Positions 1 through 64,000 of a DNA stretch of 64,000 nucleotides are shown in pieces. The notes beneath the pieces are model-generated. The model was not told the origin of the DNA and did no database searches. It worked only from the letters and a program-made list of their open reading frames with translations. The stretch comes from a phage, in NCBI GenBank assembly GCA_012441205.1, contig GCA_012441205.1_4705.1, one strand, 5' to 3'. Made by a program: the position numbers and the translations under genes. Position 1 is the stretch's first letter. Each line of letters opens with the position of its first letter.

Positions 1-820
1 GAACCGCGGTACAGGAAGGCTGGTTAGGCGACCCTAATACCTCCGTTGTGGGGTTAATTGCCGAAATAACGTTACGGGTTGAGTTCCAAACGCGACGTGA
101 ACCAAACTTACCTTGGAAGATCCCTTTCTTACCCTGGAACATATCCAACAGTAAAGCGTAGATATCGTTGAATGTTCTCTGTAAGCTCCAGCGCTGGCCG
201 TCGTAAACGGGATCGGAATAATCTTTTAATCCATCAGGGACGGTGTTAGAAATTGCAAGGAAACGACGATACAACTCCGTGATTTCTTGCTCGCTTTCAT
301 ACCCACCTTCTTTTACTTCTATTTCACGTAAGCCTGCAGGCAATACCAGTAAGTGACGGGTCATCGCTTTGAACATGTTCTCTTCGACAACTTTAATTCG
401 TAGCTCTCGTTGAGCTGAACCCGTTGAAACGAACTTGATATCCGCGACGTGTTGTGCAAAGAACCCGTATCCTGTTTGTCCTGTTAATGCATCAGACGCA
501 ACGAAGTCGCGTTGTTCGGGATCCCACCGAGCGTACGCCTTCCCCGACATGATATCGCCATAGAGGTGTTTTAATCGAATGAGACGGTCGTAAATGACAG
601 GATGCAGGATTTCAACCTTGCATTCAATCACCGCAAATCGACGGTCTCGATCTTCACTACCCGCACTACCAAAGATGGTGTAAGAATAGAAACCATCATC
701 GTGGAAATTACCGGTGCTTGGGTCACGAATGCTCATGCTCGTGATCTTGGGGAGAAAACGTAACTGCTGTTTATCGAGGTGTAAAATACTAATATTAAAC
801 GGCTCTCTGACTTTAGCCAT
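1..820 (-). CDS. multisubunit RNA polymerase beta-prime-like subunit, N-terminal part (gene continues past window start)
   Basis: ATG at 820-818 preceded by GAGGAG; frame stays open to position 1, so it is absent from the ORF track. Translation contains GKKGIFQGKFGSRRVWNSTRNVIS (cf. beta-prime [23 protein letters not shown]), ELYRRF (cf. DLYRRV) and LVLPAGLRE (cf. LPVLPPDLRP). Confidence 0.6.
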   Translation of the reverse strand, partial: MAKVREPFNISILHLDKQQLRFLPKITSMSIRDPSTGNFHDDGFYSYTIFGSAGSEDRDRRFAVIECKVEILHPVIYDRLIRLKHLYGDIMSGKAYARWDPEQRDFVASDALTGQTGYGFFAQHVADIKFVSTGSAQRELRIKVVEENMFKAMTRHLLVLPAGLREIEVKEGGYESEQEITELYRRFLAISNTVPDGLKDYSDPVYDGQRWSLQRTFNDIYALLLDMFQGKKGIFQGKFGSRRVWNSTRNVISAINPTTEVLGSPNQPSCTAV

Positions 821-1065
821 GGAGACACTCCTCTTTACCACCACCGGCTGCGGCGGTATCATCTGAACACACGAGAGACGTAATGGGTGATGGCGTCACC
901 CATCGCTTCCTTGCTTGAGGCGAGGAAGTTATTAGGTTACGTACCTGCCTGATTTTATCAGGTGGGCGATGTGTGAAGTTACGCTTCAACATTATCAATG
1001 CCGAAGGTAAACTTCGTGCATCACGTTCCAACGTAACATGGGAACGTATCGAACTGGAGGTATAC

Positions 1066-4000
1066 ATGGTAGATAAAACCCGTGTTGAGGGTGATGATAA
1101 TTGGGACAACTGGGATGAAGACTTCTCCCTGGATCTCGATTTTAACGAACCCAAAGACGATCGTAAACCGATAACACGCTTTGCGATAGGAGCGGTTAAA
1201 GGTGCTGCTGAGGATCTTACTTCCTACGAAAGAATGAAGGAGATCGCCAGAAACGCATTGCCTAAGGGCTACAGCGACGGTATGGATCTTATTGATTCCG
1301 CCGTCGGATCCACGAAGGAACTATACAATGAAGCCGTTCGTGACGTTCTTCCTAAGGTCCAAAGCTCAAAACGGTTAGCCGCACAACTGACCAAGAAATA
1401 CCGTGCGAGCATGCCCGATTTCTCGAAGAAAATTCTTGAACAATGGGAGCGAGAAGCCAAGGAAGAAGACGAACGTAAACAAGCTGAAGAAACCCTTCGT
1501 CAACGCATGGCGAGCGCGGGGGACGATGAGATCGCCCGCAAGGTTGCCGAGGCATTAGGCGAATCAGCAAACCAAAGCGCGGATCAGTTCGCTGAACAGC
1601 AAGCGAAAGAGAGTATCCGTGACGATATCGCTGACAAACGGTACGCTGTAACCAACAAACAAATGAGCGCGATGCAAGAAGGCGTCGCCAAGATGGTTGG
1701 TTTCAACAACGAATTCGCTGCACGCTACATGCGTAAAAGCCTGGAACTGAAATATCGTTCCTTAGCGATTCAACGTGCAAGTTTTGATCAGCATAAAAAG
1801 TTAGCCGAAGTCTATATCGGTTTATTACAAAACATCCAGAAGAATACGGCTTTACCTGATGCGGCTAAAGCAAAAATGTCGGAAGAATTCCGCCGTAGCG
1901 CGTACCAACGTTTCTTTGGTAATGCGTTAGATGCGATGAGTTCTTTCGAGAACCGTTTCTTTGCCGATGTTAAGAAGAACCTTGCCACCAACGCATTAGG
2001 CGCTTTAAAAGGTGTCGTGTCCGGCGCAAACGATGCGTTATACGGTTTAAACGAAGCGCGTGACTCGATGTCCATGATGGACGGGATGGGGTCAGAAGGC
2101 GATATTAAGGAAATGCAAGGAAAGATGTTGGGTCAGTTCATTGGCTCAACTGTCGCGCCGTGGATGGCTAATAAAGGCAGGATGGCGTTACGCGATTTAG
2201 CAAAACGTCACCCCAATGCTAAATTCGCTAGCGCATTAAAAGCCGTGGATCAAGGTGGTGAGGCTGCCGCTTACACGACGCGTAATCTCGGTAAACTGCT
2301 CCAGGAAGATATTCGTAAAAACGAATTCAATCTTAGCGATCCGTTTTACAAGCAATTGTTACGCGGTGCAGGGCGTTGGGCGTTCAACATGGACAGCGGA
2401 CGTAACTTCCGCGTGATGAACGACACCGCTGAAACACTGGCGGAGCAAACATCTTTCGACGGTTTAACTTACCGCAGTATCAATGAAGTTATTCCTGGTT
2501 TTCTTGCACGCATTCTGAAAAGCAGTGAAGGTATCCGCACCGGAAACAGCGATCCTGACTACGAGGTCTATGACGGCATCAGCGGACAATTCGTGTCTCA
2601 GCGCACGCGTGAACAAAGCGTCAATGACACGCTGTTTAACAAACGTACATTTGGTTATTACGCCAGCCGTTTCAACGAGGTTATCTCGGTCATCGATCCC
2701 GATAAGCAATTATCGGAAAAAGCCAGAAAGGCGCTGGCCAAGCAGTTGGCGCGAGATAGCGACGCGAACATCGCATTCGACCCGGCTCGTTTTACGGATG
2801 AAAGCAACTTCGATCGTAGTATTGACCGCGACGCTATTAAGGAACTTTCCACGTACTTTCGTGACCGTTACGGTATTCGTGATGATGTCAACGATAAGGG
2901 CGAACGTCATCAGGTCATTGGAAACCGCGGGCAATATTACACGGAACGTAACCGAGCCGATCTTCGTTACGGTCATCTGAAATCTTTACAACCGGATATC
3001 CAGCGTAACCTTAACCTGCTGAAACGTACTGGTGACGTCCAATATCTGGAACGGATTGGGATTGTAACGAGAAATAGCGACGGAAGCTACTCGGTTAATC
3101 ACGATCGGTATTTCTCTGAAATCGATCAATACATCGACCGACCGGAGTACGCTGACCGCGGCGATGTCAATACGCGATTAACCGCTCAGGAAACAAGAGC
3201 GCTGGCGCTGGGTTATCGTGACGCAAAACCATCAGCTGGTGACGTCCAAAATGTCGGCCTGCCGAACATCGGTCGTAAGGCTGCTGGAACAGTAACCGTT
3301 GATGAAAACATCGGCTACGATAAATGGTGGAACGACACAGGTGTTATCACCACATCGCTTGAAGAACAGAATCGAGCGTGGCAAGAGCTTTATCTCGAGG
3401 CGTTGTCCGAAGCATCCGAACAACGTGTTGAAATGCTTGCGCTGCTGAAAGCCATTTCTGAGAAAGACTGGTCTAATAACGTTTCGCTGGATGGTGAAGA
3501 TGTACCTGAAGGTACAGCACCCATTTCATTTATCGATCGTGCCAAACAAAAACTCGGCGGACGCAACCTGTTTAAAGGCGGCCGCAATCTCCTCTGGAAA
3601 GGAATTAAAAATACCGCACGTTTAGGTGTTAAAGGCGCACGCTGGGGTGCAGAACGCACGTTGGGTAGTTTGGTAAATTCTGGCCGACGCATTATCAATT
3701 TCAACCGCTTCGTGTTCGGCGCATTATCCAAGGTTGATCAGGTTCCGTTTGACATTTACGTTAAAGGGGAATCCCAACCACGCATACTGGCTGCCAAACT
3801 TCGTCAGGGGTTATACTTCGACGAAGCGACAGGAAAAGCCGTAAAACGGATGAAGGATATCAAAGGCCCACTCGTTGATGCGGATGGAAACATCGTAATC
3901 AGCAACGAGGATATCGAGAAAGGGTTGGTCACTCGCGCTGGTCGTGCCTTTGAGAATTCAGGACTTAAAGCATGGGCACGTGAAGGTCTTAATGGAATAA

Positions 4001-7000
4001 CGACGGCATTAAGTCTCCCACGGATGTTAAAACGCGGTGCGGTTGAGATCTACAAACAGCTTGACAAAACACCCGACGTTTACGTCAAGGGAGAATCAAC
4101 GCCTCGTCTGTTGTCCATGGTGTTAGCAGCGGGTGGGTATTTCCGTCGCTCGGATGGACAAGTCATCAAAAATCTTGAAGACATCGATGGTGATGTTGTT
4201 GATGCACAAGGTAACGTCGTACTTACGCTTGCCGACATGCAGAAAGGACTTGTCGATAAATACGGTAAAGCGATTCGTCGTTTAAAAGAAAAGCTCATCA
4301 ACTTCGGTGTAAAAGCTTTTACGTTACCGTTAACGTTGCTACGTAAGACAAAGGACATCCTTAAAGCCCTTCCAGGTAAAACCGTTAACGGTCTACGGCG
4401 GATGGGATTAAATTTCCAATCACCCGACGCATTACTGGTGGGAACAACGTCGAGCATGGTAGATCGCCTCGATGCTATTTACCAGCTTCTTGACCAGCGT
4501 ATGCCGGGAGGTGATAAGGATTACCGCGATTGGAATGGCGATGGTGTTCGAGAAGGATCGTTGGAAGACCTGAAACGTAAGCGTGAAGCCAAGGAAAACG
4601 GTAAGGATGACATCGGCAAAGATTCCAATAAAGGAGAAGAAAAGGAGAAGAAACGAGGGTTACTCGGAAGCCTTTTCGATATGCTCGGTGATACCGCAAT
4701 AGGTAAACGTCTCATGGCGAGTCCGCTTGGAAAAATTCTGGGTGGTCTTGGGGCGGTGTTAAGCGGCGGTGCGTCGTTAACTGGGTTGTTGGGCAAAGGT
4801 CTCATTAGAGGAACCGGCGCGCTGGTCAAGGGAGGACTAAGTGCGGCAGGATGGTTAGGACGTGGTGCGTTAATGGCGGGTGGGGCCGCGTTGAACGCCG
4901 TTGGTGGGTTATCGGGATTAGGTGCATTCCTCATCTCACCTGTTGGGCTTGCTATCGCTGGCGGTGCGTTGGCTGCTTATGCTGGATGGAAGATCTATCA
5001 GCATTTCGCCGAGAAGCCTGACCCGATGCAGAAGCTCCGTCTTATTGCATACGGTGCAAAAGGGGATGATAAAGACTTCAATAAGAAGCTGCTTGCGACA
5101 GAAACATACCTCACCGACCATGTGGTCATGACCGGGGATACCATCGGATTCGATCCGAAAGCCGATTCTGAAAAGATTCTCGAAATCTGGGAATTGTCTC
5201 TGGAAGATTCCGACCGAATGAACGAATGGAAACGCTGGTATCTGCATCGTTTTATTCCTGTTTTCGCTCGTGCGTACAAACTCTGGAAAGAGCATATGCC
5301 GGACGAGAAGAAATACATGGAAATGGATAAATATCCGAACGGTGAGAACAAAGTGAAATGGTCGGAAGCGTTTATCTGGCCTTCCGATAGTCCTGATGGT
5401 CCGTATTACGTCGAAGCTAACCCGTTGGGTTCTTCTGGTGCGACGCGTTATATTGCTGGTCAAGACGTCAAAACCTTGATGCTGAAACAGCTCGAAGCCA
5501 TCAAGAAAGAGTACCAGAATCAGATTAAGCAATACACTCATGATGAGGCTATTGCTGATTGGTCACGGATGTCTGACACACAACGTAAATCCGTTGCGCC
5601 TAACGCATTACGTGGTCAGAAAGCGTCATTACGTTTTAACGATAAACGTTACAACAGCGCTGGTGCTAAAGGACGACAGAAACTGGATGCAACCGCGGTT
5701 ATTGAAAGCGTAGACCGTCGTGGTAGAAAATGGGTTGCCGGTGGATACATCGATGAACTCACCAGTCTCCGTGTTCGTGCGTACGGTATTAAGGTTCCGT
5801 TGTTAAGTCAGATAAAAGTGCTGATGGAACTCGAAGACGCTGTAGAACCTGGCGTTGTCGCTGAAGGTAAAGGTGTTAAATACGGTGGCGATCTTGTCGC
5901 GCTCTACAAGAAATTCGCGACGAAGTTCGGAAGAGACGTTAACAGCAAGCATGATCAGGATATCTGGTTTGCTTGGATGAACAACCGTTTCCTGCCCGTC
6001 TTTTTAACCTATTACCAACAAGTTAGCGACATGGGCGGTCAAGGACTTCTGTCCGACGTGGTACAGAACCTGAAAGACAGCCAACGTTGGGAAATCGGTG
6101 AAGAACTTGTCGCAGCGCAATACCGTGATGAGAAAGGTACACTGCAGCCCGTATGGTCGTGGAACAGTTGTGGTTTCTCCGGTACTGAAGCTAACACCAC
6201 CAGCAGTTCAACAAAGAGTCAGCTCGATCTGTTAAAAGAATATGCGGATAAAGAGAAGGTTCGTGAGAAGAACGCGGAAGCATCGCAAGAGGATACCGAT
6301 AAATTATCGAAGATCCAAGAGCTGATGATGAAGCAGGCTGGGTACGAGAAGAAAGACGGTGTCTGGCAGAAGAAATCTCGCATTACCGGCGGGATGAGTA
6401 ACTCCGAAGCGAATTACAACCCCAATGGGAATAAGGTCGGTGCAAGCAGCTTTACTGCTTCAGCTACTTCCAGTGCGGGATTGGGGTCAACCGGCGATCT
6501 TACCGGATTGCCTAACATGGGCTTACAGAAACCTGCAACGGGGCCAGGTCCCGAAGCTGGACGTCGTGCGCTTGTTAAATCCGCTGTGAAACGCGGTATT
6601 ACCGATCCAATGGAAATGGCGATGTTCCTTGCAAACATCGAACATGAATCGGGGAACTACACTCACGTACGTGAGGGGAACTATAAGACACCAGAGCATC
6701 TTAAACAGGTCTTCCCTTACAAATTCCGTGACGTGCAGGATGCAGCGCAGACGATTAGCATGGGGCCGGAAGCGGTGTTCGAACGCGTGTACGGTAATCG
6801 TAAAGACTTAGGGAACACGCAGAAAGGAGACGGGGCGAAGTATTTAGGACGTGGCTTCATTCAGGTTACCGGTAAAGCTAACTACGCTCGTCTGTCCAAG
6901 ACCTTGAATAAAGATCTTGTCAGCGATCCATCATACCTGGAAACGCCGGAAGGTGCGGCGGAAGGTAGTGTCGCGTGGTGGCTCAACCGAGGCAATGTGT

Positions 7001-7731
7001 TACGCGATCCTGCGAAACGGGGTGATGTGCGCCAAGTTCGTTATCTGGTTAACGGTGGCTATAATGGATTACGTGACGTTGAACAGCGCTCTGCTTATTG
7101 GATTCAGGCGGCTAAGAATGGCACCCTGAAGAAAATGATGGATGAGTTATCGGGATCAACATCAGGCGATCAAGCTGAAGGACCGACTACCGCCGAGCAG
7201 GTGAAGAATGAAGCAGCCCAAGAGGCAAACGGAACGCCAACTGTAAGCAACGATCCGCAAGCCCCAGCACCTTCAACCACCCCTGAAGCTAAACCGTCTG
7301 CGGCTGCCGGTACGGCTCCAGCACCCGGAGAAGCATCACCAGCGCCTGGAAGTTTCGAAACAGCGAAAGCTGCGGCAGGACAACCGACATCAACGCCAGC
7401 ACTTAGCGATTTGCCGTCAAACCCTGGCGCAAATCGAGGGATATCGGTTCCGAATACGCCTGCACAGGTCGCGCAGTCTGCGACACAAACATCGGCCGCG
7501 AGTGAGAACTTCTACGGTAGCGCAGGTGAAATTCTCCGACAGCAGCTGACCACGCAGCAGAACATCGAGAAGAACACCGGTAGAACGAATGAACTTATTT
7601 CGGAATTAATCCAAGCCGTTAAGGGTTCTTCTATCGGTAAGGGTTCTGCAAGTCCTTCTCAACAACAGGCGATGTCGCTACCTAATCGTCCGCAAGGAAT
7701 CTCTCCAACACGGACAAGGTACGCGCAGTAG
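1066..7731 (+). CDS. giant virion-associated protein (~2220 aa) with Gly-rich hydrophobic segment and C-terminal GH19-like peptidoglycan hydrolase domain
   Basis: Single uninterrupted ORF (track 973..7731, GTG); preferred start ATG 1066 with GGAGG 5 nt upstream. Architecture resembles tape-measure or ejected cell-wall-degrading proteins of large phages. Confidence 0.8.
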   Translation: MVDKTRVEGDDNWDNWDEDFSLDLDFNEPKDDRKPITRFAIGAVKGAAEDLTSYERMKEIARNALPKGYSDGMDLIDSAVGSTKELYNEAVRDVLPKVQSSKRLAAQLTKKYRASMPDFSKKILEQWEREAKEEDERKQAEETLRQRMASAGDDEIARKVAEALGESANQSADQFAEQQAKESIRDDIADKRYAVTNKQMSAMQEGVAKMVGFNNEFAARYMRKSLELKYRSLAIQRASFDQHKKLAEVYIGLLQNIQKNTALPDAAKAKMSEEFRRSAYQRFFGNALDAMSSFENRFFADVKKNLATNALGALKGVVSGANDALYGLNEARDSMSMMDGMGSEGDIKEMQGKMLGQFIGSTVAPWMANKGRMALRDLAKRHPNAKFASALKAVDQGGEAAAYTTRNLGKLLQEDIRKNEFNLSDPFYKQLLRGAGRWAFNMDSGRNFRVMNDTAETLAEQTSFDGLTYRSINEVIPGFLARILKSSEGIRTGNSDPDYEVYDGISGQFVSQRTREQSVNDTLFNKRTFGYYASRFNEVISVIDPDKQLSEKARKALAKQLARDSDANIAFDPARFTDESNFDRSIDRDAIKELSTYFRDRYGIRDDVNDKGERHQVIGNRGQYYTERNRADLRYGHLKSLQPDIQRNLNLLKRTGDVQYLERIGIVTRNSDGSYSVNHDRYFSEIDQYIDRPEYADRGDVNTRLTAQETRALALGYRDAKPSAGDVQNVGLPNIGRKAAGTVTVDENIGYDKWWNDTGVITTSLEEQNRAWQELYLEALSEASEQRVEMLALLKAISEKDWSNNVSLDGEDVPEGTAPISFIDRAKQKLGGRNLFKGGRNLLWKGIKNTARLGVKGARWGAERTLGSLVNSGRRIINFNRFVFGALSKVDQVPFDIYVKGESQPRILAAKLRQGLYFDEATGKAVKRMKDIKGPLVDADGNIVISNEDIEKGLVTRAGRAFENSGLKAWAREGLNGITTALSLPRMLKRGAVEIYKQLDKTPDVYVKGESTPRLLSMVLAAGGYFRRSDGQVIKNLEDIDGDVVDAQGNVVLTLADMQKGLVDKYGKAIRRLKEKLINFGVKAFTLPLTLLRKTKDILKALPGKTVNGLRRMGLNFQSPDALLVGTTSSMVDRLDAIYQLLDQRMPGGDKDYRDWNGDGVREGSLEDLKRKREAKENGKDDIGKDSNKGEEKEKKRGLLGSLFDMLGDTAIGKRLMASPLGKILGGLGAVLSGGASLTGLLGKGLIRGTGALVKGGLSAAGWLGRGALMAGGAALNAVGGLSGLGAFLISPVGLAIAGGALAAYAGWKIYQHFAEKPDPMQKLRLIAYGAKGDDKDFNKKLLATETYLTDHVVMTGDTIGFDPKADSEKILEIWELSLEDSDRMNEWKRWYLHRFIPVFARAYKLWKEHMPDEKKYMEMDKYPNGENKVKWSEAFIWPSDSPDGPYYVEANPLGSSGATRYIAGQDVKTLMLKQLEAIKKEYQNQIKQYTHDEAIADWSRMSDTQRKSVAPNALRGQKASLRFNDKRYNSAGAKGRQKLDATAVIESVDRRGRKWVAGGYIDELTSLRVRAYGIKVPLLSQIKVLMELEDAVEPGVVAEGKGVKYGGDLVALYKKFATKFGRDVNSKHDQDIWFAWMNNRFLPVFLTYYQQVSDMGGQGLLSDVVQNLKDSQRWEIGEELVAAQYRDEKGTLQPVWSWNSCGFSGTEANTTSSSTKSQLDLLKEYADKEKVREKNAEASQEDTDKLSKIQELMMKQAGYEKKDGVWQKKSRITGGMSNSEANYNPNGNKVGASSFTASATSSAGLGSTGDLTGLPNMGLQKPATGPGPEAGRRALVKSAVKRGITDPMEMAMFLANIEHESGNYTHVREGNYKTPEHLKQVFPYKFRDVQDAAQTISMGPEAVFERVYGNRKDLGNTQKGDGAKYLGRGFIQVTGKANYARLSKTLNKDLVSDPSYLETPEGAAEGSVAWWLNRGNVLRDPAKRGDVRQVRYLVNGGYNGLRDVEQRSAYWIQAAKNGTLKKMMDELSGSTSGDQAEGPTTAEQVKNEAAQEANGTPTVSNDPQAPAPSTTPEAKPSAAAGTAPAPGEASPAPGSFETAKAAAGQPTSTPALSDLPSNPGANRGISVPNTPAQVAQSATQTSAASENFYGSAGEILRQQLTTQQNIEKNTGRTNELISELIQAVKGSSIGKGSASPSQQQAMSLPNRPQGISPTRTRYAQ
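4680..4990 (+). other. Gly/Ala/Leu-rich hydrophobic segment (GxxxG-like repeats) inside giant protein; probable membrane-inserting region
   Basis: Translation GLLGSLFDMLGDTAIGKRLMASPLGKILGGLGAVLSGGASLTGLLGKGLIRGTGALVKGGLSAAGWLGRGALMAGGAALNAVGGLSGLGAFLISPVGLAIAGGALAAYAGW. Confidence 0.5.
6560..7130 (+). other. GH19-like (chitinase/lysozyme family) catalytic domain within giant protein
   Basis: Motifs FLANIEHESGNY, YLGRGFIQVTGKANY, GSVAWWLNRG and YLVNGGYNGLRDVEQRSAYW match GH19 signatures (HET/HES catalytic region, GRGPIQLSWNYNY, AIWFWM). Confidence 0.65.
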
Positions 7732-14312: not shown

Positions 14313-14987
14313 TTAGCCCTCATCAAGGTTATTCTGGAGATGCATCGCGGTGAGGATAACGCCAACCGCCGAAACCGATTTTGCCTTGCTGTCTTCAGGG
14401 AGCTGCTCCAAGCTTACGGTACCTGTTTCTAACAGCATGCGGTTCATCGCGTTGAACTTCTTATCGTCACCACCACGAGCCTGCATCAGCTCTCGGTTCA
14501 CGTTCGGCATCGACCGTCCTAACGTCGCTTGCATTTCCGGCTGGCTCCAAGTGGAACCTTTACTATCACCCGTCGGCTGATTGGTGAGCTGGTCCTTGGT
14601 GTTGTTGTTTTTCGGAATCGAAATTTTAGCACTCAACGTTTCGGCTTGTCGGCGGTTTGGAATCAGGTACAATCTGGTTGGGCGGTCACGAAGCACCAAT
14701 TGCCCTGTTTTCTGGTCGGTGAGATAAATGCGTTGGAAGAAAGGGAAACCGTATTTCTTACCGACTTCCAACGCACGTTTTATCGTCACCTCGTTTTTGT
14801 TCATGTTGGGTACCCAGATGGGTAGAATCTCTTTCTTATCCCGACATAAACGCATATAGGCATCAAACGTCTCATCATCGATTTCAGCAAAACGTTTTTT
14901 GTAAATAGCGTAAGTCGGGCTCGATTCACCCACCAGGTCTTTGATATACCCAAGAATGAATTTTTCTGCTGCAGCGCGGTTGGACAT
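14313..14987 (-). CDS. hypothetical protein (224 aa)
   Basis: ORF tightly packed in minus-strand operon. Confidence 0.6.
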   Translation of the reverse strand: MSNRAAAEKFILGYIKDLVGESSPTYAIYKKRFAEIDDETFDAYMRLCRDKKEILPIWVPNMNKNEVTIKRALEVGKKYGFPFFQRIYLTDQKTGQLVLRDRPTRLYLIPNRRQAETLSAKISIPKNNNTKDQLTNQPTGDSKGSTWSQPEMQATLGRSMPNVNRELMQARGGDDKKFNAMNRMLLETGTVSLEQLPEDSKAKSVSAVGVILTAMHLQNNLDEG

Positions 14988-15724: not shown

Positions 15725-17215
15725 TTATTTTTTACTCGGACGATTCAATGCGGGTACCGGGTTCTTTGGTTGCTTTGTCTTTTCATCCATCCAGTACGGG
15801 AAGTACTCACCAGTACGCATACGCAATAAGTCCATTGTGGACAGGAACGGCAGCGGGTTAGGATCGTCCAGATACGTCCAGTAACCACGCGTGTTTAACA
15901 ATACATCCCAATCGAAACCTTTTGCTTTAAGATCGTCGTACAGTTCCTGTGGGGTGCAATACAGCTGTGGGTTTTCGTAAACCTCTTGACGCCAGAGATT
16001 ATGCATTTGACACAGCTCCGACGTAATTTCCAGAGCACGCTGTAAATACTCATCCTCTTCGCAGAGAGAACGAATGGTCGTACGCTGCAACGCAACATCC
16101 GGATAAATATCCAAATATACCGTTGAAGCACCATCAGCTGACTTACCACCTGACGCATGCATACCCCAACCACGCATCCAATCTTTATCACGCAGGTAGT
16201 GGTATTCCGTTAATGATGGTTTAACCCCTTCGCTCTGACTAACCACAATCGGGAACGGTAAGCCGGTGGGTCCGTTTTTAGCGCGCATGTTAAAGACTTG
16301 AATCAACTGCAGATCGGTATCCCCGATAAGGTTGTCACCAGGCCCACGCGGATAAAGGACGCGTTTATCCGCGTTCTGAAGAATCGTCAGTTTATCGATT
16401 TTCCAGAGGTTATTCGTATAAAACGTGAAGCGTTCCGGGACGTTCTTAAACTTCTCATCGCCCTTAAACCCTTTCAGTTTTCGTACCGGTTGCTGTCCCG
16501 GCATACCACCAACGTTTACACCGTCACCAAGGTGGGCGGTCATGGTAATGTAGATACCCGCCGACGCTGTGAGTACTGGCATCTGTGATAGAATCTGGCT
16601 TTTCGCAGCTGCTGAACGCATCGCTTCAGCATTCAGTTTTGCGCCACCCGCGGTTTCTTTATCGAACAGTGCATCAACGGCATCGATTGGTAATCCAGAG
16701 AAACTGTCGATGAGTACAACGGTCGGCAACCACCAGGTATAGTTCTCACCGTGTTTATTAATAAACGGAACGGCTTTGCGTTGAGATTTATCTTTGACCT
16801 TGTCGTCACGGAATTTCTTAATCGCATCAAACCAAATGTTACCGCTCATCTGAACAGCATCGGTGATAAACACACGTTCTTCTTCGAAAAGATCGACACC
16901 TGCGATATTAGACATGTTCATCGCAAGCGTTAAGATACGTGTTGTCGTTAACGACATTTCTGTGTCGTAAACGCTACTATTGCTGTTTGCGTAACGATCG
17001 ATAACGCGTAACAAGCGAAACATTATGAACGTGGTTTTGTTCATGTTGCCGCGAGCGCCTGCGCCCTCAACAAGCATCATGCCGCCGTTACAAATGCTTT
17101 CACCGTGTTTACCGACATAGTACCGACCACCAGATGTGGGAATATCCATTAAGCAACCAATGTTGAGATTAAAACGCATCTCTTCACCAGGAGAAAGGTA
17201 CTTATTAAGATTCAT
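15725..17215 (-). CDS. RecA-superfamily ATPase, possible UvsX/RecA-like recombinase (496 aa)
   Basis: Candidate Walker A EGAGARGNMNKTTF, Walker B-like TVVLIDSFSGL (cf. UvsX VVFIDSLGNL, RecA IVVDSVAAL), then AEAMRSAAAKSQIL...AGIYITMTAHL (cf. RecA ARMMSQAMRKLAG...LLIFINQ). Confidence 0.5.
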   Translation of the reverse strand: MNLNKYLSPGEEMRFNLNIGCLMDIPTSGGRYYVGKHGESICNGGMMLVEGAGARGNMNKTTFIMFRLLRVIDRYANSNSSVYDTEMSLTTTRILTLAMNMSNIAGVDLFEEERVFITDAVQMSGNIWFDAIKKFRDDKVKDKSQRKAVPFINKHGENYTWWLPTVVLIDSFSGLPIDAVDALFDKETAGGAKLNAEAMRSAAAKSQILSQMPVLTASAGIYITMTAHLGDGVNVGGMPGQQPVRKLKGFKGDEKFKNVPERFTFYTNNLWKIDKLTILQNADKRVLYPRGPGDNLIGDTDLQLIQVFNMRAKNGPTGLPFPIVVSQSEGVKPSLTEYHYLRDKDWMRGWGMHASGGKSADGASTVYLDIYPDVALQRTTIRSLCEEDEYLQRALEITSELCQMHNLWRQEVYENPQLYCTPQELYDDLKAKGFDWDVLLNTRGYWTYLDDPNPLPFLSTMDLLRMRTGEYFPYWMDEKTKQPKNPVPALNRPSKK

Positions 17216-18643: not shown

Positions 18644-20170
18644 TTACTCCAACACATAACGTGGGTTACTGTATATGTTAGCCCATATACCAACGTCGTC
18701 TCCCGACTCAATAATCACAGCGAAACGAAACGCAACATCAGACTCGCGATATGTTACCGCGTACGCTTTCGTTTCCGGTGATGCTAAATAGCTCAAGTTC
18801 AGACGTTGAGGCAGGTCTAACCCCAAGGACATGGTACAAGACGTAACGCCCTGCTTATCGGGGGTCAGTCTGTAATTCACGTCCACCTTCAAGCTTTTCG
18901 TAACCTGCGTAATCGCACTATGCACTTTGGTAACCGTTTTGCCTTTCTTATCCTTTTCTGTTTCGAAAAGAACGTCGGTAATTTCGGTTACGACTAGACG
19001 CGGTGTGGATTCGCGGTTAGCGTCAAGCCATTCATCCAGTAACGTCTTTAAGAAGTTCAAGGAATCAATCGCACGCCAAGCAAGGTTAGGCGGGTTGCAC
19101 GCTTCCATTAAAATGGCTGTGTTGGATCCACCTAGCGGAAGATGCACGCTCTTACCGAGGCCTGTCGGACGCATCGTAAGATCGCACTCACCCTCAAGAA
19201 TATCGCGATGATATTGACGATGATGAAGGTTATCCGTGTATGCGATATACACTGACTCCGTTGTCCCATGCTCTAATACCCGAGATGCATGCGTACGCAT
19301 AATCTCAACAGCATCATCCGGCTTGCTTAGATAGATAACACTGTACGCACTATCGCTAATCCTTTTCCCTAACTCAAGACGTCCCTTGTTGTCTTTATCG
19401 GTGTTACCACCGAAATAGATGTAGCGGCCATCTTTCGCACGCTCTTGCTGCTGGTTGGTGGTAAAGTAGCAGCGTGAGAACGTAAAGAACGGGCTTATTT
19501 CCGGTTCGGGGCTCCAATACCCCTTAGCCGGAAGTTCGCGGCGTATTTGGGTTCTTACAGCCCAGTCCTGGTTTTGTGATAGATATGTTCCACGCGTTGC
19601 CAACATATCCGCACGTTCGTTACCAACATTGCCCTCATGTCCAGGAACATAGCGCAGCGAAATATCGATAGCGTCGCGCTTCGCATCCCTTATCGCGCTA
19701 TCGAGTTTCCGCCACCGTTCCGCATTCATTAACGGTTTATTGTCGGATTTAACCCAGTTGTTCTCTCGCCAATTAGCAAGATGGTTGGTGGCACCTACAA
19801 CAACATATTGGCTGTCCGACAACAGCTGGATCCGTTTTGCCCCCTTTGCTTTTCCAAGTTCAATCGCACGTATTGCGGCATCCAACTCAGCCTGATTGTT
19901 CGTTACATTGAAACCCAAAGCCTCTAACTCATCCACGTATTCCTTGGGTTCGACCAGCACAGCGTCTTTAGGAAAGTCGAGTTTAGGGTCAACATAACCG
20001 TATTGCGTTGGTTTGGGCTTCCCACTTTTTGAAGGTTCCAAGGTGCCTTTTATTTCTTTCACCATATCGTAGGTGTAGCCATGCACGCCATAGCCACCAT
20101 ACCCACTCGATGTTGGACGGGATCCTCCATCACAGTAGAAAACGGCACCAAGCTCAGTATTTCCTGCCAT
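18644..20170 (-). CDS. RNase H (type 1, RnhA-like) domain protein with ~330-aa uncharacterised C-terminal extension
   Basis: CDGGS, TNNQAELDAAIRAIELG, LSDSQYVV, NWRENNWVKSDNKPLMNAERWRKL and VPGHEGNVGNERADMLA match the RnhA motifs TDGSC, TNNRMEL..AL, STDSQYV, W..W...KPVKN..LW and GHAG...NE.CD.LA. Preferred start ATG 20170 (GAGG upstream); ORF track starts at 20182. Confidence 0.8.
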   Translation of the reverse strand: MAGNTELGAVFYCDGGSRPTSSGYGGYGVHGYTYDMVKEIKGTLEPSKSGKPKPTQYGYVDPKLDFPKDAVLVEPKEYVDELEALGFNVTNNQAELDAAIRAIELGKAKGAKRIQLLSDSQYVVVGATNHLANWRENNWVKSDNKPLMNAERWRKLDSAIRDAKRDAIDISLRYVPGHEGNVGNERADMLATRGTYLSQNQDWAVRTQIRRELPAKGYWSPEPEISPFFTFSRCYFTTNQQQERAKDGRYIYFGGNTDKDNKGRLELGKRISDSAYSVIYLSKPDDAVEIMRTHASRVLEHGTTESVYIAYTDNLHHRQYHRDILEGECDLTMRPTGLGKSVHLPLGGSNTAILMEACNPPNLAWRAIDSLNFLKTLLDEWLDANRESTPRLVVTEITDVLFETEKDKKGKTVTKVHSAITQVTKSLKVDVNYRLTPDKQGVTSCTMSLGLDLPQRLNLSYLASPETKAYAVTYRESDVAFRFAVIIESGDDVGIWANIYSNPRYVLE

Positions 20171-20220
20171 TGTAAACCTCATTAATCATTGTCCGTATGA
20201 TAGCCCAAAGTTGTACGGTA

Positions 20221-22796: not shown

Positions 22797-22839
22797 CATA
22801 TTCCCTCCTCCTTCCCTGTTGGGTTGGAGGAGGGTTATG
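22797..22839. repeat. GGAGG-stem palindromic hairpin element (family copy)
   Basis: CATA-TTCCCTCCTCC-ttCCCtgttGGGtt-GGAGGAGGG-TTATG, immediately after stop 22796. Confidence 0.65.
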
Positions 22840-22848
22840 CTGTCAAGC

Positions 22849-22864
22849 AAAAAAAAAAAAAAAA
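22849..22864. repeat. A16 homopolymer tract
   Basis: 16 consecutive A, 10 nt downstream of the hairpin. Confidence 0.9.
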
Positions 22865-27652: not shown

Positions 27653-28906
27653 CTACTTCGTTTTCGCCGTTATCGGCTGCGATACTGTAATCTCGACCCG
27701 ATCGACATCGGTACGTTTAACGATGATAAGGCTGCGTTCATCACCGAATGGTTCTGAGATCTTACAAGCCTCTTTAAGATTTTCGAGAATCGTGCCATGG
27801 GGTTCAAACACCGCAAAACCGGAACTAGCGTCGATTCTTATTAAATATACACGCACATTGTTTACGGTAATGGTGTCATCCGTCTTGAACCCACAGCAGG
27901 AGGGTAGACAGAACTGACCATTAACGCAATTAGCTAAGTATGCCTCACCACCGAACATTTCTATTAACGTCACCGGTTTAAATGTTTTCTCTGGGAAAGC
28001 ATTATTAAGAATATCGTTTCCATTCACAAACCAGATCGTTACTTTATCTTCGGAATACGCTAGTCTGTATGGTTGGGTTGCGGACGCCTGCGCTTTATGC
28101 TGGTTAAATAACTTTGATTTTGTCGCAATCACAGCACGACCTTGGGCGTCAAAGTACAGAACTTCATACCCAACACATCCGATAAACACGCGACGGTTAT
28201 TAAGTTCCGGAATTCTGACTACTAACGCATTACCATCTTCCGTCGGTGTAATACCACGTAGGATGATAGATTCGTTGTTCAATGTTGAGTTGCTCACGAT
28301 GACGCTTCGCATTACCGCTGGCGACACTATTTCATCTGCTGCAGGTTCAAGTTGCTCCGCTGTTACAGTCACGGATCTGTCTTCCTTTTCAACTGGCCAG
28401 TTGAAAAGGATTGTTTTATTAAGACAAACAATTGGGGTAATTTCGCCGATACTCCGTATCTTGACTGAGGGGCAATTGCACACATACGGAACAAAAACAT
28501 CAATATCGTTGGTCGCTTCTTCAAGCATGCTAGCATACGCCATTGCTTCGGGACGATCGGTGAGATGAATAACAGCATAGACGATATCGTCTTTTAACCA
28601 CGCACGTTTCACTCGTCCTATAACACGATTGATGTCTACAATAACTCTCTGAGCTTTCATCTCCCATTTTACTGCATCAGTACCACCCGCAACCACGTTC
28701 GGTTTATCCGTGTTTACACGATGAAGGAAACTATTGATTATTTCCTCATCGATCTGGATATCCTTTCTCGCAAAATTCAACAACGGAATAACGAACTCAT
28801 TGTTACCGCACTTCTCTGCTCCGCGAATGATAGGAGTACACTTCTTGTTCTCATCTGATCCCCAGATAACTTTAGTCATTTTCTGTTTCCTTCTTGGGTT
28901 TTGCAC
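27653..28906 (-). CDS. hypothetical protein (417 aa), Cys-containing
   Basis: ORF in the recombination/nucleotide module; no recognised motifs. Confidence 0.55.
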   Translation of the reverse strand: MQNPRRKQKMTKVIWGSDENKKCTPIIRGAEKCGNNEFVIPLLNFARKDIQIDEEIINSFLHRVNTDKPNVVAGGTDAVKWEMKAQRVIVDINRVIGRVKRAWLKDDIVYAVIHLTDRPEAMAYASMLEEATNDIDVFVPYVCNCPSVKIRSIGEITPIVCLNKTILFNWPVEKEDRSVTVTAEQLEPAADEIVSPAVMRSVIVSNSTLNNESIILRGITPTEDGNALVVRIPELNNRRVFIGCVGYEVLYFDAQGRAVIATKSKLFNQHKAQASATQPYRLAYSEDKVTIWFVNGNDILNNAFPEKTFKPVTLIEMFGGEAYLANCVNGQFCLPSCCGFKTDDTITVNNVRVYLIRIDASSGFAVFEPHGTILENLKEACKISEPFGDERSLIIVKRTDVDRVEITVSQPITAKTK

Positions 28907-36755: not shown

Positions 36756-37055
36756 TTAATGTTTAGGTTCCGTTTTGTGTTGTGCGAGTAATGTGTTGAT
36801 CTGCTCCCGTTGTTCTTTTAAGCATGCAGGAAGCTGGTCTTCCCGTACCGTTCCGATTTCCAACGTGATGTACCAACGTTGTTCGGAAGCCTGCCATTGA
36901 AAACTGCTCTGTAACCTCAGGATGCTAGGATCACGTACCTTGCTTGCACTGTAACGGTTGAACCAATCCAGGTATGCTGCTTTCCCTTCCTCGTCAGCGA
37001 TGTAACGCTGCACGCTGTTCTTCCCTTTGTTCTCGTATCCCGTTGCACGTATCAT
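36756..37055 (-). CDS. hypothetical protein (99 aa)
   Basis: Preferred start ATG 37055 overlaps upstream stop as ATGA; ORF track extends to 37109. Confidence 0.45.
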   Translation of the reverse strand: MIRATGYENKGKNSVQRYIADEEGKAAYLDWFNRYSASKVRDPSILRLQSSFQWQASEQRWYITLEIGTVREDQLPACLKEQREQINTLLAQHKTEPKH

Positions 37056-37834
37056 GCGAACGTTTCTCCTGTAATGTGTTGCGGATGGCGTAGCATGGTA
37101 GCATCCCATTGTACGATCTGGCTTCGGCTTACCCGCATCATGATGGATTCGTCATCAAGCCCCTGTTGCGCAACCGGCAACCAACGTTCCCCAAGCACCT
37201 TCGCTTCAACACGTTTCTTGCGTGGGTTGTAACGCACCTCGCTAACCCAAGCGAATCCAAGCGGATGGACTACCCGTGGATAAAACATGCGAAGCAATTG
37301 ATGCATCCGATCCGTTGCCTCCAATTTGCCATCCACCATGTAAGGTTTCACCATGGTAAGCTTTTTGGTGTAATACGTTCCAACGGTATGGTTACGCCAA
37401 CTTGGCAAGGCATGATCCCCTTCTCTCAGTTTGCTATCCGAGTTCATTGACCAGACCTGCTGTTTACCGGCCAGCATCGCGTACTGCCGATCAACGCAAC
37501 GAACCCGATCGGCGAACAATGGATCCAGGACATCATCCACCGCGCCCTTATTGCGATAACCGTGATGTACCACCAACCTGCTTGCGCTCATCGATGCGGG
37601 ATGCTGGCTCTTATGCGCATACAGCCCTCCGTCACCGCGAGCGTCGTAAAGATAACCGCATGCGCCACGCCATATCACCTTGCCTACGGTTCTCTCGTCT
37701 TCAAGCAGCATCGTCGGCCCATCAAGCAAATTGGTGAACCACTGCACCTTCACGCATTCCGCTTGGACATGCTCAGGTAATGCCTGATACTCTTTTTGGG
37801 TGTATAAGGTATCAAAAATGATTTCTTCGTTCAT
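37052..37834 (-). CDS. hypothetical protein (260 aa)
   Basis: ORF; first gene downstream of the long non-coding region on the minus strand. Confidence 0.6.
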   Translation of the reverse strand: MNEEIIFDTLYTQKEYQALPEHVQAECVKVQWFTNLLDGPTMLLEDERTVGKVIWRGACGYLYDARGDGGLYAHKSQHPASMSASRLVVHHGYRNKGAVDDVLDPLFADRVRCVDRQYAMLAGKQQVWSMNSDSKLREGDHALPSWRNHTVGTYYTKKLTMVKPYMVDGKLEATDRMHQLLRMFYPRVVHPLGFAWVSEVRYNPRKKRVEAKVLGERWLPVAQQGLDDESIMMRVSRSQIVQWDATMLRHPQHITGETFA

Positions 37835-43400: not shown

Positions 43401-45998
43401 TTATAACGTGACTGTACCTAATTTGGTTGTCTTATTGAGATTAATGACTGAGATCTGGGTATCGCTGGTCGTGATGGTGCCGATATTAACGCGCTGTCCT
43501 TTATCATCCTCTTGCTTGTGGATGGTTAATTCCAGCTCTAACTGGTTACCATTAGGAACAACGGAAACGTACCATGTTTTATTACCTGGTGAGCTATTAT
43601 AGTCTTTTAGGTTATAATGGCCTTTAGGTAAGGTCATGGCCTTACCAGCAAACAAACATGAAATATCCTCGTTGATATAAACGTCGAAACCGGAAGAAGC
43701 GATGACTGTTGAGGCCATTATTCGAGACGCGACGATACCACGATTATAGTCGTCGATTGTGGTACCTATGACATTGAATACTTGCCCCCCGTTACCCATA
43801 ATGGTCGATTCGCTAGTGTTTACGTAGCCGATACCCCAAGTCGGATGAATGTTCCAGCGGTACCCACTGTTTTGTAAATATGTATACAAGTCTTCATAGG
43901 CCGCATTCACCCAACTACCATCACTTTTTCGTCCAGCCCTAAATTGGAATGTATTGCTATTTCCAGATGTTCCTCGGCCAAGAGGGACATGTCCCGCCAC
44001 TAACCAACCATCTGTACTTTGCATATACGCGAACGAACCGTACGCTCTGTTATCGGCCCAAATATTCACGGTATCAACACGTTCAACGTAGGCGATCACC
44101 TTTTGTACGCCGGTTATAGCGATCGAACCCTTGCGTGCCGACACACTAACTTCAGCAATTACGACACCCATTTTCCGCTGGCTGCTGTTAAATCCCAATA
44201 CAACCATTAAACACGGTGCGTTTGTTGTTTCTGGAGGAATCGTTATCGATTGTTTCCAGTCGGTGATTCCGCTGAGTTTTGTTCCAGTATATGCGTTCCA
44301 GACGGTTTGTCCAGCCGATTTCAGATTCTGTTCAGAAATAGAAATGGCCTCGCCCTCAGGGATTAACGTGTCGTAATTGAGACCAATGTTGCTGGATAGA
44401 CGAAGGTCGTTTAAGTAAGATCCGCTGAGTGTGACGTTACCGTTACGATAAATTGTCAAGAATGGCGCAGCCAGGGAGTTTAATACCGTAAAGTTACTCG
44501 ATGGCATGAAACCATAGACATCGATGCCATTACCGTGGTAATGGTAGTTTGTCCAACTACCTTGATAACTTACGGTACGTGCATCGTAGTGGCCTTGTCC
44601 AAGACCGCTGCTGGATAACGTGTATATCTTGGTTGCTGATAGAAATGCGAGATATCCATGCGCTGCCAGAGCTCCAACTACCCTGTCTTTTATCTTTAAC
44701 CAAGCTGAAGTATACAACGTACTGTCGGGATTCATTTTGGCTATTTCATCGTAAGCCGTGCCTGCGAAGTTTCCGATAGTGTACGTACGTATATCCGGCT
44801 GTCCGTTATTGTCGTTCTGTACAGCAATTACTTGCCCAGAATCATTGATATCGATATTACCGATACAGTTGTGAGCCCCCCACACCCAATATCCATCTTT
44901 ATAATTGGATTCTCCTTGTGTAAATGTCGACGGTCCTCGCCACGCGATGCCGTTCGATTCGGCGTAGTAGGTAGCTTGTCCCGATCCTGGATTCATGGCG
45001 TATCTGTTATTGGTCGGGTCAAAATCGATGTAAAAATGATGCATTCCTTGACGTTGACGGTTGTCCCGATCATTTGTCCACCACGACGAACCGACCAGAA
45101 TTCGCGCCTTACCATTTTTTACAGTGGACCATAAACGTATTGCGGCGCGCCAGACGATTTGACCGATCCCGTTGGACGGGAAACTATTCGTACTGATGCT
45201 GTTGCAGACAACGAGCTCGCTGCTGTTGTTTATTTGAGTCCCTTCAATTGTAACGCCGTTTATGTTAGTAATCAGTGTTGCCGATACACTACCCCCTGTA
45301 GGGGCGATAGAGGAACGTTGAACGGTGTAAATTTTTAGTGATAATTTATAGCCGCTCCGAATAGCTATACCAATGTAAATAGTTCCGTTAATTTCCCAAC
45401 AACAAACATCGGGCATTGTTTCTTTGAAATCGGATAAAGCACCGTCGATATACATCGCAACGTGTTTACTGGCGTCGAATGTGCCGTCCGTTAACGCGAT
45501 GAACATTTTGGCGTTATTGCCGTTGATATCAGCCGCTAATCCGAGTAGTATGTTGTTCTGATGACAGTAGATGGCTTTAGGTGCTAGATCCAACATAGCT
45601 GGTTGGTACTGTCGGCTTGTTGGTATTACGCTAGTAACTGCACCATTTTGATCCGTTTTACAAATAACGTAATATACACCGTGTATGATGCTGTTTGTCG
45701 CTGACCTCAGTAGGACGATCGTCCCGTCAGATTCACGACATATACCGTAATGGCGATAGTCGGTGATTAAACCGATAGCGCCATCGGCCGAACCTTCGAT
45801 TGCCAGAGGAAAATAACTTTGGTCCCCAACCTGTTCGATATCGGTTGCGCCGATATCGATGTATTTTTCCATCTCAGTGTTGAACTCAGCGGTACTGTAG
45901 GCACCGAGATCGCTCGCCTTTAGTCCCGTTGGGTTGTCACGACTGGCGATACGTGTAGTAACGCTACTCACCAGTTCGCTGAACTTTTTCATTGCCAT
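43401..45998 (-). CDS. large tail protein, putative tailspike or receptor-binding protein (865 aa)
   Basis: N-terminus MAMKKFSELVSSVTTRIASRDNPTGLKASDLGA shares an anchor-like motif with neighbouring tail proteins. Confidence 0.55.
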   Translation of the reverse strand: MAMKKFSELVSSVTTRIASRDNPTGLKASDLGAYSTAEFNTEMEKYIDIGATDIEQVGDQSYFPLAIEGSADGAIGLITDYRHYGICRESDGTIVLLRSATNSIIHGVYYVICKTDQNGAVTSVIPTSRQYQPAMLDLAPKAIYCHQNNILLGLAADINGNNAKMFIALTDGTFDASKHVAMYIDGALSDFKETMPDVCCWEINGTIYIGIAIRSGYKLSLKIYTVQRSSIAPTGGSVSATLITNINGVTIEGTQINNSSELVVCNSISTNSFPSNGIGQIVWRAAIRLWSTVKNGKARILVGSSWWTNDRDNRQRQGMHHFYIDFDPTNNRYAMNPGSGQATYYAESNGIAWRGPSTFTQGESNYKDGYWVWGAHNCIGNIDINDSGQVIAVQNDNNGQPDIRTYTIGNFAGTAYDEIAKMNPDSTLYTSAWLKIKDRVVGALAAHGYLAFLSATKIYTLSSSGLGQGHYDARTVSYQGSWTNYHYHGNGIDVYGFMPSSNFTVLNSLAAPFLTIYRNGNVTLSGSYLNDLRLSSNIGLNYDTLIPEGEAISISEQNLKSAGQTVWNAYTGTKLSGITDWKQSITIPPETTNAPCLMVVLGFNSSQRKMGVVIAEVSVSARKGSIAITGVQKVIAYVERVDTVNIWADNRAYGSFAYMQSTDGWLVAGHVPLGRGTSGNSNTFQFRAGRKSDGSWVNAAYEDLYTYLQNSGYRWNIHPTWGIGYVNTSESTIMGNGGQVFNVIGTTIDDYNRGIVASRIMASTVIASSGFDVYINEDISCLFAGKAMTLPKGHYNLKDYNSSPGNKTWYVSVVPNGNQLELELTIHKQEDDKGQRVNIGTITTSDTQISVINLNKTTKLGTVTL

Positions 45999-62697: not shown

Positions 62698-64000
62698 TCA
62701 ATCGATTATGTCGTGATCGTTAATTTCTACAATTTCTTCATCGAATCGACCGACGTCTTTCTTCAAGCCTGCATTGGTTGCTGCAACGTCATTTGCAATT
62801 TGTGGGGTAATGATTAACCGACCGCGCTCATCGATAGGTGCGTACATACTGAACTTCTGACGTCCGGTTGGTTCGGAGTGTGGAAGATTCAGATAGCTTG
62901 CACAGAACGGGATGGAACCACTAACCAAACGACTCTCGTCAGCCAATGCAGCACCGCCTGCGTTTTGGCTCTGGAGAACAACATGCGTGCTCACTTTGAA
63001 CAGCATGCAATCACCCGGTGACTGAATCGATGTTGCCACTTTCTCACGTTTATCACGATTGCTCTGGATATTGAGAATCGCTTCCGTTGCAACTTGATTT
63101 CGCAACGCCTTCTGTACATCACGATTGGTCATCTCTTTACGGTTGTTCTGTCGTTTACCACGTTCTGTGGTTTTAAGATGGAACCCCAGTTTAAAGATGC
63201 TCTTACGCACATCCTCCATGACATATTCCAACACCATCAATTCCTTACCGAACATCGTCGTGGTATCAACACGACTCATTTCGATAGTGACATTGTCAAT
63301 CAGATACGCCATAAATTCGTAGAAGTCGTCGCAAGGAATATTTTCCTGTTTGAACTTCTTCTGTTGAATTTCATCAACGTAAAGATCGAGACTGTCGATG
63401 TGGTGGTTTACATCACGCAACAAACGCGCATCCGCGTTGTTGTTATTAAAGATAATCAAACCGAGTAATGTACGCCAATGGTCTGGCGCATTCGCGAACT
63501 CTTCAACCGGATAGTCTTCCGGAAAACGATCGTAATAACGGTCGATGAGATACAAGAATGCACCGACAAGGCCAAGAACAATACGTTCCGTGCCTCCACG
63601 TCTTACTGCAATTTGAATATCAGGATGTTTGTAACGTACAGCGCTAGCGCTACGGCTTTTACCGCTTTTGCTGATACTAAAACCTTTAGGAATAACCCCC
63701 ATGGTGCGATAGATTACCCATTGGTCACGCGGAAAATCACGTTCAGCAAGGTTCCGTCCGGTTACGGCTTCGACACCTGCAAAACGTCGGAAACACTCAC
63801 CCACCCCGTACTTCGCAAAGAGATAGTGACCCAGTGTGGTTACGCTGGTGTGGTTGATGTTGTCACCGTTCACTTTACTTTGTTTGGTAAGATGATAGAT
63901 TTGTGACCAGGGTAATGACAGGTAATGACGATAATCGATACCGGTCGGTGTATCATTGCTCAGGAACTGATACGGTGTACGTTTAACCGTGATTTTGTCA
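62698..64000 (-). CDS. multisubunit RNA polymerase beta-like subunit, C-terminal part (gene begins beyond window end)
   Basis: Frame stays open upstream of track start 63873 to position 64000. [20 protein letters not shown] resembles beta [37 protein letters not shown] resembles GGQRFGEMEVWALEAYGA; about 300 aa of extra C-terminal sequence. Confidence 0.5.
   Translation of the reverse strand, partial: [433 protein letters not shown]

Follow-up and report, generated by a model that had tools for sequence, protein, structure and literature searches.

Genes of the locus

The window, by which we mean the whole 64,000-nucleotide stretch of phage DNA that was analysed, holds three genes for pieces of multisubunit RNA polymerases (RNAPs), all on the minus strand. 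Two are cut by the window edges, at 1-820 and 62698-64000, and the third, at 14313-14987, is complete. A giant virion gene on the plus strand (973-7731) stands back to back with the left-edge gene. An earlier sequence-only reading of this DNA had placed RNAP subunit genes at both edges, and this has held, as both open reading frames (ORFs) lie where it placed them and their products match PHROG 2986 (left, E=3e-93) and PHROG 2943 (right, E=1.5e-81).

The window is 96-98% identical in nucleotide sequence, across its full length, to Escherichia phage vB_EcoM_Goslar (NC_048170.1), and Goslar was the sole megablast match of both window ends (96.9% and 98.1% identity). Goslar infects E. coli and is a chimallivirus, one of the nucleus-forming jumbo phages related to phiKZ. 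At this level of identity, the window can be taken as another isolate of the same species-level group. In the full-length comparison it is collinear with Goslar 214445-237307 joined to 1-41130, with gene order, strands and coordinates in agreement, so that the arbitrarily chosen start of the Goslar record falls inside the window. The linear Goslar record both begins and ends with a match to the 55 nucleotides at 22810-22864, and must then carry a terminal duplicate. This duplicate is probably a circular-assembly overlap, with the window crossing the record origin unbroken. Searches with single proteins also found three Goslar-like IMG/VR contigs that are 90-98.6% identical to the window. As none of the three matches it exactly, the DNA past either edge is described here by extrapolation from related phages.

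Within this close relationship there are three mosaic patches, each a single gene on the minus strand flanked by genes 98-100% identical to those of Goslar. The genes at 43401-45998, 27653-28906 and 37052-37834 have 65%, 62% and 60% protein identity to Goslar gp026, gp009 and gp021, respectively. Since the gp026-like gene adjoins a Peptidase_S74 tail-fibre-like gene (gp025), this patch may reflect the exchange of a host-range module. An Rfam search of the whole 64-kb window at the gathering threshold found no family, tRNA included.

The left-edge gene and its giant neighbour

The left-edge gene (1-820, minus strand) is the 5' part, codons 1-273, of an ortholog of phiKZ gp180, Goslar gp205 and SPN3US gp240. 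Its ATG lies at 820-818 with a GAGGAG Shine-Dalgarno sequence upstream, and the frame runs off the start of the window after 273 aa; the catalytic DFDGD segment and the remainder of the gene lie past the left edge. The ribosome-binding site falls within a 152-bp intergenic region (821-972) from which this gene and the giant gene diverge, a layout common to phiKZ and Goslar. The product is 100% identical to Goslar gp205 over 273 aa and 40% identical to phiKZ gp180 (E=3e-62), and relatives are found in 314 phage records. It covers positions 3-271 of the PHROG 2986 profile, named 'RNA polymerase beta subunit', and has a faint second match to PHROG 2987 (E=0.0067). The RefSeq annotation is imprecise here, labelling what is a piece of beta' as 'beta subunit'.

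Structural databases point the same way. The family profile, which is thin because a homologue search with the 273-aa fragment gave 7 proteins, matched 75 distinct PDB sequences when the cutoff was set at E<=1; the 60 of these that were listed are without exception beta' or gamma chains, headed by 7s01_d, the beta'-N chain of AR9 (E=2e-12). In E. coli beta' the profile matches residues 211-356. With blastp against a 16-sequence reference set, the product itself aligned to E. coli RpoC 242-356 (E=1e-5). Two beta' motifs, VLPAGLREIE (aa 159-168) and GSRRVWNSTRNVIS (aa 240-253), align with conserved regions in this part of RpoC, the former with E. coli VLPPDLRP in the lid/rudder region. A profile search of both edge products had been proposed as a check on the earlier reading, and it found RNAP homology on either side, through 7s01_d and other beta' chains at the left and through phiKZ gp123 (E=2e-137) at the right.

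The same reading described the left product as an N-terminal piece of beta' without the zinc-finger cysteines, a description that the beta'/gamma matches and the cysteine content both bear out. There are two cysteines in the 273 aa (67 and 270), and a search for the zinc ribbon (CxC...CxxC) found no counterpart of E. coli C70, C72, C85 or C88. The AR9 enzyme likewise has no zinc-binding domain (PMC7618050). The absence of the ribbon is a lineage trait and no ground to reject homology to beta'.

The gene's surroundings and published work on its relatives place it in the virion RNAP (vRNAP). It diverges from a gp181-like giant gene, as in phiKZ (gp181|gp180-gp179-gp178). In the stretch that corresponds to DNA beyond the window edge, Goslar has an HNH ORF downstream of gp205 and then a gp178-like beta-N gene, and phiKZ is arranged alike. 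In phiKZ, gp180 is one of the virion RNAP subunits; gp178, gp80 and gp149 co-precipitate with it, and it enters virions (PMC10612078). Purified Goslar virions contained gp205 along with gp78, gp196, gp207 and gp210, described as 'all five vRNAP subunits' (bioRxiv 10.64898/2026.04.21.720040), and a homologous 519-aa protein is beta'N in the SPN3US scheme (PMC5105663). Judged by its sequence, the left-edge gene is that of the phiKZ-like virion RNAP beta'-N subunit (gp180/PHROG 2986 family).

The giant gene (973-7731, plus strand; 2252 aa) is an ortholog of phiKZ gp181, a tail-associated endolysin, and of Goslar gp204, to which its product is 98.3% identical; it is not part of a polymerase. It matches PHROG 3201 (E=1e-295) and PHROG 181 (E=3e-52), and an endolysin/GH19 chitinase-like domain lies at about aa 1867-2091 (nt about 6571-7245), where the match to Glyco_hydro_19 itself falls below the cutoff. 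Its C-terminal region has no significant alignment to the C-terminus of phiKZ gp181, a region that presumably carries a lytic transglycosylase domain. That the beta' gene adjoins a giant hydrolase-bearing virion gene is thus correct, as the earlier reading had it, but the further suggestion of a co-packaged arrangement was overstated, since one product is a tail lysin and the other a polymerase subunit of the head. The phiKZ RefSeq notes give gp181 as a tail-associated endolysin and gp180 as a head protein, so their adjacency is not evidence for joint packaging. It is an old conserved synteny of two virion proteins from different compartments. Other vRNAP genes are dispersed, with beta-C about 13.5 kb away and beta'-M (Goslar gp78) without a counterpart in the window.

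A complete gene for the virion RNAP beta-C subunit

The gene at 14313-14987 (minus strand, 224 aa) went unflagged in the sequence-only reading. It is an ortholog of phiKZ gp149, Goslar gp196 and SPN3US gp218. Its product matches PHROG 3233 (E=1e-65), shows 100% identity to Goslar gp196 and 39% to phiKZ gp149 (E=8e-46), and has relatives in 290 phage records. The gene lies in a block, gp147-gp157, that is conserved in synteny with phiKZ. In published work on Goslar, gp196 tagged with sfGFP served to follow the vRNAP after injection (PMC10541120). This is the phiKZ-like vRNAP beta-C subunit (gp149/PHROG 3233).

By itself, the link from beta-C to cellular beta is weak. In hhalign, the family (consensus ...KGSxISxPE...GL...ELMKxRGGD...) aligned to E. 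coli RpoB 1160-1312 with E=0.007 and low probability; among the three RNAP genes, it alone aligns, if weakly, to the C-terminal region of beta. The AlphaFold model is of low confidence (pLDDT 67) and all of its Foldseek matches are weak, with RNAP beta chains making up 47 of the 50 listed. An HMM-versus-sequence search of the PDB with the family profile returned nothing relevant and did not reach bacterial beta. For beta-C, as for the beta-N family discussed below, assignment to beta draws on weak profile-profile and fold matches together with published structures.

Two other genes of the gp147-gp157 block lie near beta-C, both on the minus strand. The one at 15725-17215 encodes a UvsX-like recombinase (PHROG 97, E=2e-32) in the position of phiKZ gp152, and the ORF at 18644-20182, in the position of phiKZ gp155, is collinear with the annotated RNase H gene of Goslar (gp190).

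The right-edge gene and the non-virion RNAP

The right-edge gene (62698-64000, minus strand) is the 3' part, the last 433 of 598 codons, of an ortholog of phiKZ gp123 and Goslar gp039, with its stop codon at 62698-62700. The 433-aa fragment is 99.8% identical to Goslar gp039 and about 23% identical to phiKZ gp123, which phmmer found with E=3e-27 (PDB 7OGP chain E, 7ogp_E). A 26-member family profile spans gp123 from end to end (E=2e-137). The family of its PHROG match, 2943, is named simply 'polymerase', and RefSeq is no more precise, giving this subunit of the non-virion RNAP (nvRNAP) the same bare label.

Structure prediction was done on a full-length beta-N homologue (AlphaFold, pLDDT 79.6). 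In Foldseek, the model matched phiKZ gp123 (9rjs_E) with E=1e-32 and a TM score of 0.86 normalised to the target, followed by AR9 chain 7s00_c (E=1e-16) and then by bacterial beta chains (E about 1e-7 to 1e-5). From the AR9 structure paper (PMC9209446), we infer that 7s00_c, which has 484 aa and is distinct from the 640-aa chain C, is the beta-N subunit gp105. Published work on phiKZ identifies gp123 as a subunit of the non-virion RNAP, with the beta2 lobe as its middle domain and the beta double-psi beta-barrel located in gp71-73 (PMC7618050). It follows that the right-edge gene encodes an N-terminal module of beta and belongs to another polymerase than the left-edge gene does.

This settles one claim of the sequence-only reading in part. 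That the right product is beta-like was right, given gp123 and the fold matches to bacterial beta, but the C-terminal motifs assigned to it were not found: hhalign gave no match to double-psi beta-barrel B or the C-terminal conserved regions (E. coli beta about 1050-1320), and gp123 provides the beta2 lobe. The product is the N-terminal module of beta, from the beta2-lobe region. Of the whole beta-N polypeptide, the window encodes the C-terminal part, including the beta2-lobe region.

Sequence comparison with bacterial beta stops short of placing this module. Against whole E. coli RpoB, hhalign matched the family at residues 416-451 only, which was not significant (E=0.07, probability 0.8%), and against RpoB residues 440-700 alone the result was not significant either (E=0.1). 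Because of this, the exact site at which beta is split is unmappable by sequence, and the placement rests on published structures. In an HMM-versus-sequence search of the PDB, the family profile reached phiKZ gp123 but not bacterial beta.

Directly downstream of the beta-N gene, on the same strand and after a 34-nt gap, lies an 852-aa ORF (60105-62663, minus strand) that is 99% identical to Goslar gp038 and has no PHROG family match at E<=0.001.

Searches across the window

Queries run against the whole window comprised ten proteins of phiKZ and four of Goslar, E. coli RpoB and RpoC, and the profiles of the three families. They revealed no RNAP piece beyond the three genes described; the gp181-like neighbour was also matched. 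Pfam found no RNAP family in the two edge fragments, in beta-C or in full-length beta'-N. All three subunit families are present in large numbers of jumbo phage genomes (246-314), and the Pfam blank is read as divergence and not as absent homology. It fits the view, put forward in the sequence-only reading and upheld by the phiKZ orthologs, of a phiKZ-like jumbo phage whose beta and beta' genes are split and highly divergent.

A group I intron in the beta'-N catalytic motif of related phages

Relatives of the left-edge gene can be followed past the point at which the window ends. In Goslar (L001, 5127-7350), a group I intron recognised by Rfam splits the beta'-N gene inside its catalytic motif, ...LGGD | FDGDTVS.... 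The annotated gp205 has ...LGGD at the end of its exon, after which the frame continues as far as a stop codon, and a short exon, FDGDTVSVN, lies about 2 kb downstream; the HNH ORF gp206 and the Rfam group I intron lie between the two. The same site is occupied in phiKZ (L011, 10474-12100), where gp179 is the HNH protein. In contig L009 the intron at this site measures about 510 nt and has no endonuclease ORF, and contig L010 has no intron, so that LGGDFDGD is contiguous at aa 486-493 of a 548-aa protein.

Three allelic states can therefore be seen in Goslar-like phages, namely a longer intron (about 2.0 kb) that contains an HNH homing-endonuclease ORF, a shorter one (about 0.5 kb) that does not, and no intron at all. 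The intron-less allele establishes where the two exons meet and that the catalytic aspartate triad is present in this family. It also exposes an annotation problem, as RefSeq gp205 (502 aa) reads through the exon-intron boundary, and splicing at the L010 junction would give a protein of about 548 aa that includes DFDGD. Introns in vRNAP genes were already drawn in PMC5105663 (Fig. 7). While the RNAP genes themselves are known, the intron polymorphism at the beta'-N catalytic motif is the least-documented aspect that we found. Somewhat speculatively, and with a low probability in our estimation, the genome from which the window comes could carry any of the three states or a fourth. If it did, it would add a data point to a natural series showing how introns are gained and lost, and their endonucleases lost, in the gene of an essential enzyme that is packaged.

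Two host-independent polymerases

Taken together, it is nearly certain that the window comes from a Goslar-like chimallivirus and that three of the window's genes belong to two multisubunit RNA polymerases of this phage, both host-independent. What the sequence itself shows is homology, orthology, synteny and motif content; what is said here of packaging, timing and enzymatic role is drawn from published work on Goslar, phiKZ, SPN3US and AR9 and would apply by extension. In this scheme, the vRNAP would consist of five polypeptides (beta-N, beta-C, beta'-N, beta'-M and beta'-C; PMC7598289, PMC5105663), of which 1-820 starts beta'-N and 14313-14987 is beta-C. It would be produced late, loaded into the head and delivered together with the DNA, after which it would transcribe early genes, those for the nvRNAP subunits among them. 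The nvRNAP would comprise four beta/beta' pieces and a sigma-like fifth subunit and would be made early; 62698-64000 ends its beta-N gene. This second enzyme is expected to transcribe middle and late genes inside the chimallin (phage) nucleus, and host RNAP should not be required (PMC7598289, PMC13282480, PMC10541120).

Could the left-edge gene instead be the nvRNAP beta'-N, of the phiKZ gp55 family? Both beta'-N families are split at the same site (PMC7598289), the faint second PHROG match is to 2987, and the best PDB match is an nvRNAP subunit, AR9 gp270, with vRNAP chains absent among the PDB matches. We consider this very improbable. The PHROG 2986 match (E=3e-93) dwarfs that to 2987 (E=7e-3), the reciprocal best match is phiKZ gp180, accompanied by gp181/gp179/gp178 synteny, and both the identical Goslar gp205 (bioRxiv 10.64898/2026.04.21.720040) and phiKZ gp180 (PMC10612078) are found in virions. 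The PHROG scores, the reciprocal match and the virion data effectively refute an nvRNAP assignment, and the gene is best read as vRNAP beta'-N.

An equally slim chance attaches to the right-edge gene being the C-terminal catalytic part of beta, or some other 'polymerase'. That word is all that RefSeq and PHROG offer as a name, and sequence searches alone, ending short of bacterial beta, leave the module unplaceable. Against this, the family is collinear throughout with gp123, whose beta2 lobe is separate from the barrel in gp71-73 (PMC7618050); the fold match of the beta-N model is to AR9 7s00_c, the 484-aa chain inferred to be gp105, and not to the 640-aa chain C (PMC9209446); and the family's sole hhalign match in RpoB, non-significant as it is, falls at 416-451, while RpoB 1160-1312 aligns with the separate gene at 14313-14987. 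Least credible of all, with a probability close to nil, is that the motif resemblances are fortuitous and neither edge ORF encodes an RNAP subunit. The blank Pfam result for the edge ORFs would agree with this, but the edge families match experimentally solved phage RNAP subunits with E-values of 1e-12 to 1e-137, recur across the 246-314 jumbo phage genomes noted above, and are covered by published proteomic and structural data; the PHROG, phmmer, profile and Foldseek matches refute it.

The sequence-only reading was right in outline and so is partly supported. It needs correction in that the edge genes belong to two enzymes, the left to the virion RNAP and the right to the non-virion RNAP, that the right gene is beta-N, and that the beta-C gene between them was missed. 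The RNAP system was already known and in Goslar itself has been experimentally characterised. The main value of the analysis is correct annotation, namely the recognition of a Goslar-type chimallivirus and the assignment of three genes to two host-independent RNAPs. These two enzymes underlie a life cycle built on an early-infection vesicle and a phage nucleus, and for the window itself there is no new biology.

Comparison with known RNA polymerases

Goslar is the closest known system, with gp205, gp196, gp039 and gp204 having counterparts in the window that are 100%, 100%, 99.8% and 98.3% identical in protein sequence; the difference lies in the nucleotide identity of 96-98%. In phiKZ, the vRNAP is made of gp178, gp149, gp180, gp80 and gp176, and the nvRNAP of gp55, gp68, gp71-73, gp74 and gp123 (PDB 7OGP/8QUE/9RJS). 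The window has orthologs of gp180, gp149 and gp123 and keeps local synteny at gp181|gp180 and gp147-gp157, but the sequences are very divergent, and the window's giant gene matches endolysin/GH19 chitinase-like families.

For SPN3US, the vRNAP has been assigned as gp240 (beta'N), gp241 (betaN), gp42 (beta'M), gp218 (betaC) and gp244 (beta'C) (PMC5105663). The five-piece architecture is shared and subunit sizes are close (about 520-550 aa for beta'N and about 222-224 aa for betaC), and both vRNAP proteins of the window match SPN3US-like Salmonella phages. Identity is about 30-34%, and genetic evidence, in the form of amber mutants, exists for SPN3US alone. The AR9 nvRNAP (PDB 7S00/7S01), made of gp105 (betaN), gp089 (betaC), gp270 (beta'N), gp154 (beta'C) and gp226, provides the closest solved structure to the left-edge family (chain d, profile E=2e-12) and also has no zinc-binding domain. 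It differs in that gp270 belongs to the non-virion enzyme of a uracil-DNA Bacillus phage, with similarity confined to conserved beta' regions.

Cellular enzymes stand further away. The phage polymerases have no zinc ribbon, divide beta and beta' each into two to three polypeptides, and lie beyond Pfam models; no homologues of alpha or omega have been reported for them in the literature. With bacterial, cyanobacterial and plastid RNAPs they nonetheless share the conserved beta' regions (E. coli beta' 211-356), and relatives carry the DFDGD motif. The nvRNAP beta-N has the fold of the N-terminal half of bacterial beta in common with the cellular enzymes, and beta' is divided in these phages at the same place as in cyanobacteria, after its double-psi beta-barrel (PMC7598289).
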